DNA of 64,000 nt, from assembly GCF_017348835.2 (NCBI RefSeq), contig NZ_CP071375.1; one strand, given 5' to 3'. The stretch is from Escherichia coli. GTDB lineage: Bacteria > Pseudomonadota > Gammaproteobacteria > Enterobacterales > Enterobacteriaceae. Within the stretch, counting starts at the first letter, position 1; each line of letters begins with the position of its first letter. Positions 4,089 to 59,962 of the stretch are shown here, piece by piece. The notes under the pieces are model-generated. The model was not told the origin of the DNA, did not search any database, and worked only from the letters and a program-made list of their open reading frames with translations. The translations under genes were made by a program, and so were the position numbers.

Positions 4089-4296
4089 AGCGTGCGTGTT
4101 CCAGTTGCGAATTACGAAGGAAAGCGTTTCAATTCAATAGATTGTTGTAATTATCAACTATTTTTGAATTAACGACTGGCAGTATATCATTGAAACGGAC
4201 CTGAAAGCAGCCAAAGCGGTCGCGAAAATGTAAAATTGTTGTTGGATTGTGCCATTTTATCGTTCTGCGCTGTGATCTGGCTGTAACAATACTTTT

Positions 4297-5250
4297 TCAA
4301 AATGCATTACGTATAACATCTATTACTCCGTGCAGGATGGGATCACGCAGGCTGAATTTGTTGTAGTGGATAGAGAAATCTATTTGCTCCTCATTTAAGG
4401 ACGGAAAAGGCAGTTTTTCCAGCGGCCAGCAGCGGCTAAACAGGTTATAAAAACGGCTGGGAATAATCGCTAACATGTCACTGTTGGCAACCAGTGCAGC
4501 GATTGTCAAAATGTTGTAGCTGGTGAAATTGATTTGCCGGTCCGGAAACATCTCTTGAACTCTCTGCCGCAGACCGCTGAAATTTTGCCCTTCCGGTAAC
4601 AGGAGTACATGCGCAGCGTTGTCGATAGTCTCTCTGTCATCTTCTAAAGAGAGTAGTGGATTTCCCTCGCGGCAAATTAACACCATATTGTCGGTGAACA
4701 GAACATGATGTTGCACCGTACGATTGGTGCAAAACATGTTATCGATGATGAGATCGGTTTGAAACTGACTGAGTTGGTTTTCCGCGTCGCTGATGGGCGG
4801 GTTGCGCAGTAAAAGCTGCGGATAGTGAGTTTTAATCGCCCGATAGATGACAGGAAGGACCAGGGCTCCGACCGAGGGAGTGGTCGCAATAGTTATCGTT
4901 CGTTGCTTATCATAGCTTCCTTCGATATCCAGCGCGCCAAGAATGGACTCAAGGCCCTGACTGATATACTCATGTAGATGCATCGCAAATGCGGTAGGAG
5001 TGACACCCTGGCCTTTGCGAATAAACAATGGGTCAGGGAATATAACGCGCAGTTTCTGAATAGACTGACTGATTGCCGAGGGGGTCAGATTAAGCACTTT
5101 CGCTGCATTAACGATCCCTTTATGTACATATACAGCTTCAAAAATAGTCAGAAGGTTAAGATCAATATTTCGTAAGGTTGTAAATATTTGTGGTTTACCT
5201 TCTGACGACTTTCTGCTTAAACAGGGTTCAATTTGATTATTACTATCCAC
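4297..5250 (-). CDS. ybeF: LysR-family transcriptional regulator YbeF
   Basis: 317 aa; N-terminal LysR-type HTH (DLNLLTIFEAVYVHKGIVNAAKVLNLTPSAISQSIQKLR). Confidence 0.88.
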   Translation of the reverse strand: MDSNNQIEPCLSRKSSEGKPQIFTTLRNIDLNLLTIFEAVYVHKGIVNAAKVLNLTPSAISQSIQKLRVIFPDPLFIRKGQGVTPTAFAMHLHEYISQGLESILGALDIEGSYDKQRTITIATTPSVGALVLPVIYRAIKTHYPQLLLRNPPISDAENQLSQFQTDLIIDNMFCTNRTVQHHVLFTDNMVLICREGNPLLSLEDDRETIDNAAHVLLLPEGQNFSGLRQRVQEMFPDRQINFTSYNILTIAALVANSDMLAIIPSRFYNLFSRCWPLEKLPFPSLNEEQIDFSIHYNKFSLRDPILHGVIDVIRNAF

Positions 5251-5508
5251 GCACTTACTCCAATTTTATTCATGGAAAAATAATATTTAAAAAATTACAA
5301 TAATCTTATGTCTAATTGGAACGGAACGCTTTTGCTCACCATAATCAACTATTTCAATAGGTTAATCAATGGGGTGAGTTACGGAGCAAGGCGTAGCACC
5401 GCATTTCTGCAAGTGATAAAGAAAATATACAAACACGAAGGAGATGTAAAGCATTAGCAGGTATTATGAGTAATGACCCAGTGTAAATTGGGCCATTGAT
5501 GTATGGAA

Positions 5509-6150
5509 TTAAGTGGTAATATATTCGAAGTCAGGATTGTTTAGTAGCGCTAAAATATTTTCCAGTAAACGTGGAGCAATATTATTAGTCGTCGCTTCGG
5601 GTTTCCATTGTGATATTTTAGCCATTTCCATTCCGGCATACCCACAAGGATTAATACGTAAAAATGGTGAAAGATCCATATTGACGTTTAATGCCAGACC
5701 GTGGAATGAACAACCGCGTCGAATACGTAAACCCAGTGAGCAAATTTTCTTTTCCCCGACATAGACACCTGGCGCGTCAGCCCGAGGATGCGCTTCTATA
5801 CCCAGTTCAGCCAGGGTATTCACCACTGTTTGCTCAAGCAAGGTCACCAGTTCACGCACACCGAGTTTACGGCGTTTCAGGTTAAGCAACACATACATCA
5901 CCTGTTGCCCCGGCCCGTGATAAGTCACCTGTCCACCGCGATCGCTCTGGATCACCGGAATATCACCCGGCATTAAAATGTGCTCCGCTTTTCCTGCCTG
6001 CCCTTGGGTGAATACCGGATAGTGCTCGACCAGCCAGATTTCATCAAGGGTACTATCATCGCGGGTATCGGTGAATTCATGCATAGCCTGGGAGATTGGC
6101 TCGTAAGGCTGAAGACCGAGCTGGCGGACAAGAATTTTATCCTGATACAA
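5509..6150 (-). CDS. lipB: Octanoyltransferase LipB
   Basis: 213-aa ORF matches LipB. Confidence 0.93.
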
Positions 6151-30554: not shown

Positions 30555-30717
30555 AGAAAAAAGAGGGTAGCAGCGTTAACTGCTACCCTCGAAGATTGTT
30601 ACCCAGCGTATTGCGGTTTTCAGGCCCGATGGGGAACGACCATCAGGCGTATAGTCTGTCCGTGCTACGTAACAATCGAGAGGGCTAGAATTTCCGCCCC
30701 TGGTTCTTGTAATTAGT
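30555..30717 (-). ncRNA. sroC: SroC sRNA, processed from the gltI-gltJ spacer (GcvB sponge)
   Basis: Position between gltI and gltJ with an intrinsic terminator at its 3' end; boundaries placed from remembered K-12 layout, not computed. Confidence 0.55.
30556..30592 (-). terminator. Rho-independent terminator/attenuator after gltI (3' end of sroC)
   Basis: Minus-strand hairpin gagggtagcag..ctgctaccctc followed by a U6 run (A6 on + at 30556-30561). Confidence 0.8.
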
Positions 30718-39104: not shown

Positions 39105-39179
39105 TGGCTGGGGTACGAGGATTCGAACCTCGGAATGCCGGAATCAGAATCCGGTGCCTTACCGCTTGGCGATACCCCA
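39105..39179 (-). tRNA. glnX: tRNA-Gln (anticodon CUG)
   Basis: 75 nt; reverse complement reads UGGGGUAUCGCCAAGCGG...CCAGCCA; anticodon loop read by eye. Confidence 0.9.
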
Positions 39180-39216
39180 ACTGGGTGCACTTACAAGGTA
39201 AGCGTCTTGAATAAAT

Positions 39217-39291
39217 TGGCTGGGGTACGAGGATTCGAACCTCGGAATGCCGGAATCAGAATCCGGTGCCTTACCGCTTGGCGATACCCCA
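39217..39291 (-). tRNA. glnV: tRNA-Gln (anticodon CUG)
   Basis: Identical copy of the 39105..39179 gene. Confidence 0.9.
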
Positions 39292-39339
39292 ACAAATTGG
39301 TTTTTGAATTTGCCGAACATATTCGACACATTCAGAATT

Positions 39340-39416
39340 TGGTGGCTACGACGGGATTCGAACCTGTGACCCCATCATTATGAGTGATGTGCTCTAACCA
39401 ACTGAGCTACGTAGCC
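39340..39416 (-). tRNA. metU: Elongator tRNA-Met (anticodon CAU)
   Basis: 77 nt; GGCUACGUAGCUCAGUUGG...CCACCA; anticodon CAU. Confidence 0.9.
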
Positions 39417-39431
39417 AGATTGTTTCTTCGA

Positions 39432-39506
39432 TGGCTGGGGTACCTGGATTCGAACCAGGGAATGCCGGTATCAAAAACCGGTGCCTTACCGCTTGGCGAT
39501 ACCCCA
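39432..39506 (-). tRNA. glnW: tRNA-Gln (anticodon UUG)
   Basis: 75 nt; same scaffold as glnX but anticodon loop UUUUGAU. Confidence 0.9.
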
Positions 39507-39540
39507 ATAACCGGGCGGTGAACCGCTTACTCGAAGAAGA

Positions 39541-39615
39541 TGGCTGGGGTACCTGGATTCGAACCAGGGAATGCCGGTATCAAAAACCGGTGCCTTACCG
39601 CTTGGCGATACCCCA
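39541..39615 (-). tRNA. glnU: tRNA-Gln (anticodon UUG)
   Basis: Identical copy of the 39432..39506 gene. Confidence 0.9.
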
Positions 39616-39638
39616 TCCGTACAACGCTTTCTGGTGAA

Positions 39639-39723
39639 TGGTGCGGGAGGCGAGACTTGAACTCGCACACCTTGCGGCGCCAGAACCTAAATCTGGTGCG
39701 TCTACCAATTTCGCCACTCCCGC
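39639..39723 (-). tRNA. leuW: tRNA-Leu (anticodon UAG), long variable arm
   Basis: 85 nt; GCGGGAGUGGCGAAAUUGG...CCCGCACCA. Confidence 0.9.
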
Positions 39724-39731
39724 AAAAAAGA

Positions 39732-39808
39732 TGGTGGCTACGACGGGATTCGAACCTGTGACCCCATCATTATGAGTGATGTGCTCTAACCAACTGAGCT
39801 ACGTAGCC
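39732..39808 (-). tRNA. metT: Elongator tRNA-Met (anticodon CAU)
   Basis: 77 nt; identical copy of the 39340..39416 gene; first gene of the operon. Confidence 0.9.
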
Positions 39809-42098: not shown

Positions 42099-42198
42099 TG
42101 CCGGATGCGGCGTGAACGCCTTATTCGGCCTACAAAAGCATGAAAATTCAATAAATTGCAGGAGCTGCGTAGGCCTGATAAGCGTAGCGCATCAGGCA
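42099..42198. repeat. REP/BIME cluster between asnB and umpH
   Basis: tgccggatgcggcgtgaacgccttattcggcctac and gtaggcctgataagcgtagcgcatcaggca palindromic units. Confidence 0.7.
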
Positions 42199-55663: not shown

Positions 55664-56209
55664 ATGAAAACGATTGAAGTTGATGATGAACTCTACAGCT
55701 ATATTGCCAGCCACACTAAGCATATCGGCGAGAGCGCATCCGACATTTTACGGCGTATGTTGAAATTTTCCGCCGCATCACAGCCTGCTGCTCCGGTGAC
55801 GAAAGAGGTTCGCGTTGCGTCACCTGCTATCGTCGAAGCGAAGCCGGTCAAAACGATTAAAGACAAGGTTCGCGCAATGCGTGAACTTCTGCTTTCGGAC
55901 GAATACGCAGAGCAAAAGCGAGCGGTCAATCGCTTTATGCTGCTGTTGTCTACACTATATTCTCTTGACGCCCAGGCGTTTGCCGAAGCAACGGAATCGT
56001 TGCACGGTCGTACACGCGTTTACTTTGCGGCAGATGAACAAACGCTGCTGAAAAATGGTAATCAGACCAAGCCGAAACATGTGCCAGGCACGCCGTATTG
56101 GGTGATCACCAACACCAACACCGGCCGTAAATGCAGCATGATCGAACACATCATGCAGTCGATGCAATTCCCGGCGGAATTGATTGAGAAGGTTTGCGGA
56201 ACTATCTAA
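55664..56209 (+). CDS. seqA: Replication-origin sequestration protein SeqA
   Basis: Start at the internal ATG 55664 ([11 protein letters not shown]..., 181 aa). Confidence 0.95.
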
Positions 56210-56234
56210 AACGTTGCAGACAAAGGACAAAGCA

Positions 56235-57875
56235 ATGGCAATCCACAATCGTGCAGGCCAACCTGCACAACAGAGTGATTTGATTAACGTCGCCCAACTG
56301 ACGGCGCAATATTATGTACTGAAACCAGAAGCAGGGAATGCGGAGCACGCGGTGAAATTCGGTACTTCCGGTCACCGTGGCAGTGCAGCGCGCCACAGCT
56401 TTAACGAGCCGCACATTCTGGCGATCGCTCAGGCAATTGCTGAAGAACGTGCGAAAAACGGCATCACTGGCCCTTGCTATGTGGGTAAAGATACTCACGC
56501 CCTGTCCGAGCCTGCGTTCATTTCCGTACTGGAAGTGCTGGCAGCGAACGGCGTTGATGTCATTGTGCAGGAAAACAATGGCTTCACTCCAACGCCTGCC
56601 GTTTCCAATGCCATCCTGGTTCACAATAAAAAAGGTGGCCCGCTGGCAGACGGTATCGTGATTACACCGTCCCATAACCCGCCGGAAGATGGTGGTATCA
56701 AGTACAATCCGCCAAATGGTGGCCCGGCTGATACCAACGTCACCAAAGTGGTGGAAGACAGGGCCAACGCACTGCTGGCCGATGGCCTGAAAGGCGTGAA
56801 GCGTATCTCCCTCGACGAAGCGATGGCATCCGGTCATGTGAAAGAGCAGGATCTGGTGCAGCCGTTTGTGGAAGGGCTGGCCGATATCGTTGATATGGCG
56901 GCGATTCAGAAAGCGGGCCTGACGCTTGGCGTTGATCCGCTGGGCGGTTCCGGTATCGAATACTGGAAGCGTATTGGCGAGTATTACAACCTCAACCTGA
57001 CTATCGTTAACGATCAGGTCGATCAAACCTTCCGCTTTATGCACCTTGATAAAGACGGCGCGATCCGTATGGACTGCTCCTCTGAGTGTGCAATGGCAGG
57101 CCTCCTGGCACTGCGTGATAAGTTCGATCTGGCGTTTGCTAACGACCCGGATTATGACCGTCACGGTATCGTCACTCCGGCAGGTTTGATGAATCCGAAC
57201 CACTACCTGGCGGTGGCGATCAATTACCTGTTCCAGCATCGTCCGCAGTGGGGCAAAGATGTTGCCGTCGGTAAAACGCTGGTTTCATCTGCGATGATCG
57301 ACCGTGTGGTCAATGACTTGGGTCGTAAACTGGTAGAAGTCCCGGTAGGTTTCAAATGGTTTGTTGATGGCCTGTTCGACGGCAGCTTCGGCTTTGGCGG
57401 CGAAGAGAGCGCAGGGGCTTCCTTCCTGCGTTTCGACGGTACGCCGTGGTCCACCGATAAAGACGGCATCATTATGTGTCTGCTGGCGGCGGAAATCACC
57501 GCTGTCACCGGTAAGAACCCGCAGGAACACTACAACGAACTGGCAAAACGCTTTGGTGCGCCGAGCTACAACCGTTTGCAGGCAGCTGCGACTTCCGCAC
57601 AAAAAGCGGCGCTGTCTAAGCTGTCTCCGGAAATGGTGAGCGCCAGCACCCTGGCAGGTGACCCGATCACCGCGCGCCTGACTGCTGCTCCGGGCAACGG
57701 TGCTTCTATTGGCGGTCTGAAAGTGATGACTGACAACGGCTGGTTCGCCGCGCGTCCGTCAGGCACGGAAGACGCATATAAGATCTACTGCGAAAGCTTC
57801 CTCGGTGAAGAACATCGTAAGCAGATTGAGAAAGAAGCGGTTGAGATTGTTAGCGAAGTTCTGAAAAACGCGTAA
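56235..57875 (+). CDS. pgm: Phosphoglucomutase
   Basis: Start at [10 protein letters not shown] (546 aa); phosphoserine loop TPSHNP. Confidence 0.95.
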
Positions 57876-57893
57876 ACACATTAAATAATAAAT

Positions 57894-57919
57894 ATCCTCC
57901 GGCATAGCCGGAGGTTTTT
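57894..57919 (+). terminator. Rho-independent terminator after pgm
   Basis: cctccgg-catag-ccggagg followed by T5. Confidence 0.7.
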
Positions 57920-58600
57920 CAAATGCGCCTATAAGGCTCTCTTACCAGCCGCGCCCTAACAGGCGCACACGATCTGACATTTGCATCCAACTTCGTTACT
58001 TACGGCCCGTAAACGGGCTGCCCGGATAGGGAATCGATAACTGCTCTACCATTTTATCCTCTTCAAGCTGGTGCTTTATGTAATCCTGTATCTTCGCCGT
58101 GTTCTTACCCACTGTATCGACGTAGTACCCTCTGCACCAGAACTCCCTGTTCCTGTATTTGAATTTCAAATCACCAAACTGCTCGTAAAGCATCAGACTG
58201 CTTTTCCCTTCCAGATATCCCATAAAGCCGGATACGCTCATTTTGGGCGGGATCTCCACAAGCATATGGATATGATCTGCACAGCATTCAGCTTCCAGAA
58301 TCCGTACACTTTTCCACTCACACAGCTTTCTCAAAATACTGCCTATTGCTCTACGCTTCTCTCTGTAGAACACCTGTCTTCGATATTTTGGCGCAAAAAC
58401 TATGTGATATTTACAGTTCCATCGGGTGTGCGCTAAGCTCTTTTCGTTCCCCATTGGGACCCCCTTTTGATTTCTTGTTTGACACTTGCAGTTGCCAGAC
58501 CGCAAGGTGTTTTAACAAATCAAAAGGGGTTTTAATAACTGGCTCAAAGCTGAAAGCTTTCCGGAACCCCCAGCCTAGCTGGGGGTTTTCTGTGCACAAG
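57900..58600 (-). mobile_element. IS200-family insertion sequence (IS200/IS605 family), boundaries approximate
   Basis: Contains an IS200-type Y1 transposase gene; the 5' side has a perfect hairpin (58566-58588) and a long-range inverted repeat (58461-58471 / 58527-58537) around the tnpA RBS; size is about 0.7 kb. Confidence 0.6.
57996..58454 (-). CDS. tnpA: IS200-type Y1 (HUH) transposase TnpA
   Basis: 152 aa from MGNEKSLAHTRWNCKYHIVFAPKYRR...; HUH motif HIHMLV and catalytic Tyr region; closely resembles Salmonella IS200 TnpA by recall. Confidence 0.85.
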   Translation of the reverse strand: MGNEKSLAHTRWNCKYHIVFAPKYRRQVFYREKRRAIGSILRKLCEWKSVRILEAECCADHIHMLVEIPPKMSVSGFMGYLEGKSSLMLYEQFGDLKFKYRNREFWCRGYYVDTVGKNTAKIQDYIKHQLEEDKMVEQLSIPYPGSPFTGRK

Positions 58601-58631
58601 AAAAAGGGCGGTCGCAAGATCGCCCTTTTTT
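58601..58631 (-). terminator. Rho-independent terminator of speF-potE
   Basis: Minus-strand hairpin gggcgatcttgcgaccgccc flanked by A6/T5, immediately after the potE stop. Confidence 0.75.
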
Positions 58632-58642
58632 ACTTTGCTTTT

Positions 58643-59962
58643 TTAACCGTGTTTATTTTTCAGTTCAAAGCGTGGTGATACCAGACCATACAGTGTCCAA
58701 CCGAGGAAGGTCACGATAGAACCGTACAGCATGGCTTCTTCCCCGGATGAGTACAGCGCATAGAAACTGTACATCGCGCCAACAAAAGCAACAAAGTTTG
58801 CAACTTTCGCTTTTGAGGGGGGCACATTAGCGACCTTTTGAATAATGACTAATGCCGCCATTGACAGAATATACGGAATGATATTGGTCACCACGGCCAG
58901 GTTAACCAGCACGTTGAACTGACTGTTTAGCGACGGGCTAATCGTCATCAGCGCCAACCCGCTCTGGATAATCACAATGGTCAACATTCCCTGCACCGGT
59001 GCATCCACTTTGGTTACACGGGAGAAAATTTTAGGGAAGTAGCCTTCATCAGATGAAGATTTAAACACCTGGGCAATGGTGAACTGCCAGCCAAGTAGCG
59101 AACCGCAGCAGGACATCACCATCAGCGCCATAATGACTTTACCCACTTCCGGCGTGAACATCTGCGCGAAGGCCAGACCAAATGGTGCCGTTGAATTTGC
59201 CAGCTCCATATTTGGCACAATCCCGGCAATCACGTTGGTGGAGACGATATAAATCACCGCCGCACCTAACGTACCGCCGAGTACCGCGATTGGCACATTA
59301 CGTTCCGGGTTTTCCACTATATCAGTATTTGCACACGCAGACTCCAGACCAAGAAAAGCCCACAGCGTCATAGCGATGGAAGAACCTACCGCACTGAAGA
59401 ACGGTGCATGATGCGGATTCCAGGAATCAACGTACAGCGTCGGGCTAAACCAGAACCAGCCAATAATGCACAGACCGACGACCGGAATAATGACCCCCCA
59501 CACGGTAATGCTACTGATTTGCCCGGTAATGCGCGCACCACCAAAGTTAGCCACGGTACAAATCCACAGCACCCCGATGGTCGCAAGACCAATCTGCACT
59601 GGCGACAAACTCGCGCCGAGCAGTTCGGTGCCGTAACCAACCGCCGAAATAGCAATCGCGACGTTAGCAATCAGCAGTGAGACGCCGTAGGTATAGTTCG
59701 CCATAAAGTTACCGGATTTACCGAAAGCATACTCGGCATAACCGCCCATACCGCCTGATTTACGGCTGAACATACCGCATTTTGCGAATGCCCATGCCAG
59801 TGCCATTGAGCCTACGGCTGTCACCAGCCAGGAGATAATTGAGATTGTCCCGACTTCGGCAAGCTTTGTCGGCAGCATGATGATACCGGAGCCCATCATG
59901 TTGACCATCGTCAGTATGGTTAACTGAACGACGCCCATTTTGTTCGATTTAGCCTGACTCAT
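58643..59962 (-). CDS. potE: Putrescine/ornithine antiporter (APC family)
   Basis: 439-aa 12-TM transporter matching PotE. Confidence 0.95.
   Translation of the reverse strand: MSQAKSNKMGVVQLTILTMVNMMGSGIIMLPTKLAEVGTISIISWLVTAVGSMALAWAFAKCGMFSRKSGGMGGYAEYAFGKSGNFMANYTYGVSLLIANVAIAISAVGYGTELLGASLSPVQIGLATIGVLWICTVANFGGARITGQISSITVWGVIIPVVGLCIIGWFWFSPTLYVDSWNPHHAPFFSAVGSSIAMTLWAFLGLESACANTDIVENPERNVPIAVLGGTLGAAVIYIVSTNVIAGIVPNMELANSTAPFGLAFAQMFTPEVGKVIMALMVMSCCGSLLGWQFTIAQVFKSSSDEGYFPKIFSRVTKVDAPVQGMLTIVIIQSGLALMTISPSLNSQFNVLVNLAVVTNIIPYILSMAALVIIQKVANVPPSKAKVANFVAFVGAMYSFYALYSSGEEAMLYGSIVTFLGWTLYGLVSPRFELKNKHG

Follow-up and report, generated by a model that had tools for sequence, protein, structure and literature searches.

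The pgm-potE spacer and the element it holds

In the window, by which we mean the whole 64,000-nucleotide stretch of Escherichia coli DNA that was analysed, pgm (56184-57875, + strand) faces the convergent gene potE (58643-59962, - strand) and speF, and the spacer between them holds an IS200 element. The top (tnpA sense) strand of the element is the window's minus strand; element nt 1 falls at 58599, and tnpA is read in the same direction as potE. The features of the spacer are as follows.

57889-58599, - strand: IS200 (IS200C-type), complete, 711 bp (alignment with the empty site)
57896-57914, - strand: right-end subterminal hairpin CCTCCGGCTATGCCGGAGG, element nt 686-704 (terminator scan; -15.5 kcal/mol)
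57996-58454, - strand: tnpA, encoding a 152-aa Y1/HUH transposase (Pfam, NCBIfam, motif)
58446-58534, + strand: art200 antisense sRNA, about 90 nt, predicted from homology to Salmonella art200 only (PMC4513863)
58455-58560, - strand: tnpA 5'UTR (Rfam STnc490 and RNA fold)
58565-58587, - strand: left-end subterminal hairpin AACCCCCAGCTAGGCTGGGGGTT, element nt 13-35 (fold; Rfam STnc490 model positions 1-23)
58600-58631, no single strand: native bidirectional pgm/potE terminator, the host target (GAAAAA-GGGCGGTCGCAAGATCGCCC-TTTTTT; -21.9 kcal/mol on the + strand)

The approach employed to define the ends was a megablast comparison of 57600-58900 with 5426 complete E. coli genomes, which yielded direct pgm-potE junctions. 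In E. coli 06-3462, where the two genes are joined directly, the empty site reads ...ACACATTAAATAA|GAAAAAGGGCGG... (in longer form gcgTAAacacattaaataa|gaaaaagggcggtcgcaagatcgccctttttt); written as ...TTAAATAA|GAAAAAGG..., it differs from the window by exactly 711 bp, 57889-58599. The original prediction, which had asked for such a comparison of the same locus in other E. coli genomes, placed the element at 57900-58640, and these limits are corrected here, as the former splits the right-end hairpin and the latter takes in the host terminator. No target duplication was found between window and empty site, only TT being common to both junctions. Because the first two bases of the element (TT) are also the two bases that follow its last base, its boundaries carry a 2-nt AA/TT ambiguity and could equally be written as 57887-58597 or 57888-58598. 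For the same reason we abandoned the assignment of a single cleavage point, TTGTGCAC...ATATTTA and GTGCAC...ATATTTATT being equally possible from sequence comparison. TT stands at both junctions in every copy read, in tandem copies (see below) and in both empty-site reconstructions. Copies of E. coli IS200C elsewhere match the window from 57887 to about 58605, and the 676 nt between the two hairpins is the same in five other E. coli copies in which both were located. Terminal inverted repeats are absent, TTGTGCAC... and ...GGATATTTA not being inverted repeats of each other, and there is no second IS200 copy in the 64-kb window.

The predicted product of ORF 57996-58454 is, as originally proposed, a 152-aa Y1 transposase on the minus strand with an HIHMLV motif. 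It matches Pfam Y1_Tnp PF01797 (E 4.7e-37) and NCBIfam transpos_IS200 NF033573 (142.8 bits; cut-off 55), carries ADHIHMLVE at residues 59-67, in which H61-I-H63 is the HUH motif, and has the catalytic tyrosine at Y125, the residue whose substitution in Y125F gives a catalytically dead mutant of Salmonella IS200 (PMC4513863). It is homologous to the solved IS200/IS605 TnpA structures 2EC2, 2F5G, 2A6M and 2XM3 (E 1e-18 to 1e-15), the alignment covering the HUH motif and the helix that contains the tyrosine. A 169-aa reading from TTG 58505 was dropped in favour of ATG 58454, which has the Shine-Dalgarno sequence AAGGGGGT upstream and is the annotated start. The protein is identical to the E. coli IS200C TnpA at 150/152 residues, the differences being K82E and G136V. 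The 711 bp hold this single ORF, i.e. tnpA with no tnpB, as in the IS200 group, and every feature of that group that can be tested in sequence was found: Y1/HUH transposase, tnpA only, no inverted repeats, two hairpins, no duplication, several copies at unrelated loci and the IS200-specific leader.

Taken as a whole, the sequence evidence indicates that 57889-58599 is almost certainly a complete, apparently functional IS200 of the E. coli IS200C type at the foot of a terminator. The element is a known one. RefSeq already has a copy identical to that of the window in strains PE164 and F2_81, with its gene annotated as an IS200/IS605 family transposase; the present analysis adds where precisely the element begins and ends, the empty site, the attribution of the 'pgm terminator' hairpin to the element and the double hit at one terminator (see below). 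A quite different explanation is that the ORF is what is left of an IS200 that was domesticated or has decayed, fixed at this locus without functional ends. IS200 rarely transposes (PMC4513863), the protein has two substitutions relative to the commonest IS200C TnpA and the RefSeq label is merely 'IS200/IS605 family transposase', all of which such a remnant would accommodate; nevertheless, the element has both its ends in full, with the sequences seen in other copies, and the empty site is shorter by precisely the length of the element; the ORF is full-length with HUH motif and Y125, and the element is carried by only 30/5426 genomes, the opposite of what is expected of a fixed domesticated gene. 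We therefore regard a remnant as very improbable, and the original prediction of an IS200-family element holds, its ends being intact and the ORF no domesticated fragment. It is scarcely credible that the gene encodes a REP-associated tyrosine transposase (RAYT) and does not belong to an insertion sequence: RAYTs are Y1/HUH proteins of similar size, and there is a weak match to NCBIfam REP_Tyr_transpos NF047646, yet its 28.3 bits lie far under the 80-bit cut-off, against 142.8 over 55 for transpos_IS200, the flanks are the left and right ends of IS200 with no REP/BIME arrays, and the element is multi-copy and mobile.

Upstream of tnpA lies the structured leader that had been recognized as typical of IS200. 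Rfam STnc490 (RF01405) matches 58464-58587 (- strand) over its full length, 1-124, with 146.4 bits (gathering score 56), and the 5'UTR folds with -40.9 kcal/mol (z -4.39), its Shine-Dalgarno sequence being paired. The stem-loop concerned spans element nt 71-139 (window 58529-58461) and pairs AAGGGGGT (58466-58459); in element numbering, the Shine-Dalgarno sequence lies at nt 134-141 and the ATG at nt 146. By analogy with Salmonella IS200, in which transcription starts at about nt 40 and the stem-loop spans nt 69-138 (PMC4513863), tnpA transcription would begin at about element nt 40. STnc490/art200 has been described as an RNA antisense to the tnpA 5'UTR (PMC4513863); the Rfam family matches the tnpA-sense strand and takes in the left-end terminator hairpin, so that its orientation appears to differ from that of the published sRNA. 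Weak matches to MicX and BjrC174 at 58511-58656 were set aside, as they are under the gathering scores and reflect terminator hairpins. Elsewhere in the window, Rfam matches at gathering level were a cluster of seven tRNA genes (39108-39808, - strand), sroC sRNA (30555-30717, - strand), a cspA-type thermoregulator 5'UTR (972-1420, + strand) and ES036 sRNA (42134-42176, + strand), all usual for the corresponding region of the E. coli chromosome.

Hairpins stand at both ends of the element. That of the left end, presumed to be the TnpA-binding hairpin of this end, folds with -18.7 kcal/mol on the - strand and with -20.7 kcal/mol, followed by TTTT, on the + strand; in Salmonella IS200 the corresponding nt 12-34 are a bidirectional Rho-independent terminator that blocks impinging transcription (PMC4513863). 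The right-end hairpin is followed by ATATTTA(TT) up to the end of the element. Read on the + strand it becomes CCTCCGGCATAGCCGGAGG plus TTTTT (57896-57919), which is terminator-like for pgm and lies 21 nt past the pgm stop codon, and it was on such grounds that the element had been placed between a pgm terminator and a potE terminator. However, this hairpin recurs unchanged in 6/6 further E. coli IS200 copies that were read at the right end, and it is absent from the empty site; the supposed pgm terminator is the IS200 right end. For annotators the warning is that the terminator-like hairpin after pgm is transposon DNA.

The native terminator lies on the other side of the element. Its stem, GGGCG...CGCCC at 58606-58625, is 6 nt from the IS left end at 58599, in agreement with the earlier observation that the left end abuts the potE terminator, and it is intact in empty and occupied genomes alike. 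[quoted passage not shown] On this comparison, the spacer before insertion held one bidirectional terminator common to pgm and potE, and IS200 entered the A/T tract at its pgm-proximal foot. The potE transcript would thereby keep the hairpin and the first 8 nt of its U-tract, while pgm transcripts meet, in order, the right-end hairpin with T5, the left-end hairpin with T4 and the native terminator. Transcription of both genes probably still terminates here, and the insertion would be close to neutral. The element itself would be nearly silent, by analogy with Salmonella IS200, for which silencing by the terminator hairpin, the Shine-Dalgarno-sequestering leader and antisense art200 has been demonstrated (PMC4513863). 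The importance of the locus is small: the insertion, of a known IS, looks neutral, marks a lineage and is usable for typing.

Distribution in E. coli and the two junctions at one terminator

The original prediction that the insertion is strain-specific agrees with the genome comparison, in which the uninterrupted short pgm-potE spacer was present in 3164/5426 complete E. coli genomes and IS200 at the pgm/potE site in 30/5426. The variability of this spacer between strains, stated in the same prediction, is likewise real, K-12/BL21-type strains having an extra gene block. In BL21 (4277-6023 of the sequence compared) about 1.7 kb that is missing from the window lies between pgm and potE; the block of the K-12/BL21 type comprises a lipoprotein gene, a DUF2625 gene and a truncated wHTH pseudogene. 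Across E. coli the spacer exists in at least four states.

The element is widespread at other sites. The 1301-nt query, which includes pgm and potE flanks, had 18019 matching places in 5425 genomes; IS200 copies 95-99% identical were found at many other loci, with up to 36 places per genome, and the right-end probe matched 2721/5426 E. coli genomes. Matches covering the IS only adjoin gnd, galU, uhpT, lom, hypT and sseA.

The 30 occupied genomes are of two kinds. A junction-specific query separated two matching genomes from 28 with a 3-nt gap, and the window junction was thus found only in PE164 and F2_81 (both from pigs), at 100% identity. The remaining 28/30 carry the same 711-bp element in the same orientation, 3 nt closer to pgm, at ACACATTAAA|IS|TAAGAAAAAGG, as against ACACATTAAATAA|IS|GAAAAAGG in the window; this type, which corresponds to window 57886/58600, includes E. 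coli WP8-S18-CRE-02 (L010) and YSP8-1 (L011), with the locus at about 1776-2544. With the element removed, either junction type gives precisely the same empty site. Between the two groups there are 10 differing positions within the IS and many SNPs in the pgm, potE and speF genes beside it, which places the groups in different chromosomal backgrounds with different IS200 variants. As far as the sequences can tell, the simplest reading is that IS200 entered this terminator twice, independently and in the same orientation, at points 3 nt apart. One ancestral insertion could also have given rise to both junction types had it later moved by 3 nt, through local excision and re-insertion or rearrangement, and element length, orientation and terminator are indeed all the same; the 10 differences within the IS, the many flanking SNPs and the exact restoration of the same empty site by each junction speak against such a shift, which we consider improbable.

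Target sites of IS200-group elements

Association with terminators is not confined to the pgm/potE locus. The left end was located in five other E. coli copies, and in each (5/5) it stands directly after a GC hairpin and T-run; four of the five follow an annotated gene that is read in the same direction (gnd, galU, uhpT and sseA) and the fifth follows a prophage lom-family gene. When the left-end hairpin 17-mer CCCCAGCTAGGCTGGGG was scanned over species-representative genomes, 120 loci (L012-L131) were obtained from widely differing bacteria, among them Vibrio, Oxalobacter, Mailhella/Desulfovibrio, Peptococcaceae, other Bacillota, Brenneria, Edwardsiella and Dickeya. In IS200-group copies a GC hairpin, usually with a T-run after it, precedes the left end: one ending ≤12 nt from this end was present in 86/97 unique flanks, compared with 14/97 in a control placed 60 nt further upstream, and mean folding energies were -19.6 and -9.4 kcal/mol for left-end flanks and control, respectively. 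By the same hairpin criterion, only 35/206 (17%) of the T-rich pentamers outside long ORFs in the window qualified, versus 89% of the left ends. A 2025-26 preprint independently reports an enrichment of terminator-like sequences directly before IS200/IS605 elements, so that the association as such is already known; literature text searches for an older statement of a target rule for IS200/IS1541 gave only this preprint.

Several further observations were made among these loci. The exact hairpin CCCCAGCTAGGCTGGGG is common to IS200-group elements of Proteobacteria, Desulfovibrionaceae, Bacillota and Peptococcaceae, and in a Bacillota-type family (L032, L097-L105) it stands at the right end, followed by ATGCTTATT. 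Tandem IS200-group copies were seen at L117 (about 300-365) and at L118 and L120, each of these two with two matches, in which a right end, CCTCCGGCTATGCCGGAGGATATTTA, is directly followed by a left end, TTGTGCCCAG...; such a junction could be the RE-LE junction of a circle, or another copy's right end (hairpin and ATATTTATT) used as target. In Dickeya undicola (L091, about 2100-2180, - strand) a solo left end in the form of a long perfect palindrome, TTTTTTGTCTATAGAAAACCCCCAGCTAGGCTGGGGGTTTTCTATAGACAAAAAAA, lies after a terminator hairpin without the rest of the element and may be a remnant or a MITE-like derivative. The case described in PMC3082878 would fit an IS200-group insertion at the terminator hairpin and T-tract of an attenuator.

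At the insertion point itself the sequence is T-rich and ends in TT: TTCTT in the window, TTATT in the group of 28 genomes and T-runs elsewhere. This target form, TT[A/C/T]TT, is also that of the element's own 3' end, TTATT. From the foot of the target hairpin to the insertion point the distance varies, being 0-8 nt plus TT, which makes recognition of the hairpin as a rigid structure unlikely. Both end hairpins are preceded by GAAAA(A), and AAAA is invariant in the copies sampled, so there is no covariation with targets.

In IS608, the cleavage and target tetranucleotides pair with a guide of 4 nt that lies immediately 5' of each subterminal hairpin, AAAG with TTAC (PMC5934647). Were IS200 to follow IS608 and ISDra2, TnpA would excise the top strand as a single-stranded circle and paste it 3' of a short target pairing with the guide just 5' of the left-end hairpin. 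By the same analogy with IS608, the AAAA at both ends would be the guide and would pair with TTTT in terminator T-tracts, and this proposed AAAA:TTTT pairing would account for T-rich targets and for insertion into terminator T-tracts. The hairpin beside the target, which may be seen as resembling the element's own right end (hairpin and TTATT), might contribute to capture or to the survival of the insertion, and the outward terminator-like hairpins at both ends would let the element replace the terminator that it interrupts. Our tentative hypothesis, to which we give somewhat under an even chance, is that IS200-group elements actively home to intrinsic terminators, with pairing between AAAA and the T-tract and with the GC hairpin on the single-stranded target helping capture.

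The terminator association, including the double hit, might instead reflect the survival of harmless insertions, with any T-rich pentamer being used and no targeting of hairpins. Insertions just past a terminator break no genes or operons, the variable spacing speaks against a rigid reading of the hairpin, and the data consist of standing copies and not of de novo events. On the other hand, the excess of hairpins before left ends over those before T-rich pentamers at large (89% against 17%), the constant orientation of the copies read, with the left end on the T-tract side, the tandem copies, which target another copy's hairpin and TTATT (L117, L118 and L120), and the two independent hits 3 nt apart at the pgm/potE terminator speak against survival alone. 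We consider survival as the whole explanation less likely than not but a serious alternative, and part of the association could come from post-insertion selection.

In IS608-type elements the active (top) strand lies preferentially on the lagging-strand template. If the chromosome has the K-12 orientation and the locus lies in the right replichore, as we assume, the top strand of the window copy is on the leading-strand template, which is not the preference of the IS608 type. Presumably, judging by K-12 gene orientation, the window and sseA copies lie the 'wrong' way and the gnd, galU and uhpT copies the 'right' way.

Homing to terminators, if true, would explain the harmless spread of a near-silent IS, the double hit 3 nt apart and the tandem copies; what would be new is then the site rule and its mechanism, not the association. 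Targeting of this kind would also suggest a possible terminator-seeking insertion tool. The wider pattern bears modestly on how elements of the tnpB-less branch of the IS200/IS605 family choose their targets.

Comparison with known systems

IS200 of Salmonella enterica, the 707-bp element of Lam & Roth whose layout is given by Ellis et al. 2015 (PMC4513863), resembles the window element in having a single 152-aa tnpA with Y125, no inverted repeats and no target duplication. Its terminator hairpin lies at nt 12-34, compared with 13-35 here, and its stem-loop at nt 69-138, compared with 71-139; the window element also matches the Rfam STnc490/art200 region over its full length. The two, compared by published layout, differ in length (707 bp versus 711 bp here), the window element being an E. 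coli sequence variant.

E. coli IS200C, the NCBI PGAP name for TnpA WP_000526135.1, agrees with the window element in 95-99% of the DNA from end to end, in 150/152 residues of TnpA and fully in the end sequences, TTGTGCACAG... and ...GGAGGATATTTA; K82E, G136V, a handful of SNPs and another chromosomal site are the differences. IS1541 of Yersinia pestis and Y. pseudotuberculosis, which also belongs to the IS200 group, is closely related and also expresses STnc490 (PMC4513863). Many left-end loci of the TTGTGCCCAG... type (L116-L131, which we would guess to be Yersinia) have the same hairpin and T-run target. Whereas a Yersinia genome has about 40 copies of IS1541, the median for the element in E. 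coli is 1-2.

The mechanistic paradigms of the IS200/IS605 family are IS608 of Helicobacter pylori and ISDra2, which share with IS200 a homologous Y1 TnpA, a subterminal hairpin at each end, duplication-free insertion 3' of a short left-side target and a 4-nt guide 5' of each hairpin. IS608 differs in carrying tnpB and in its TTAC target, reached via the guide AAAG, whereas IS200 lacks tnpB, would use AAAA as its guide and has T-tracts beside hairpins as its targets.
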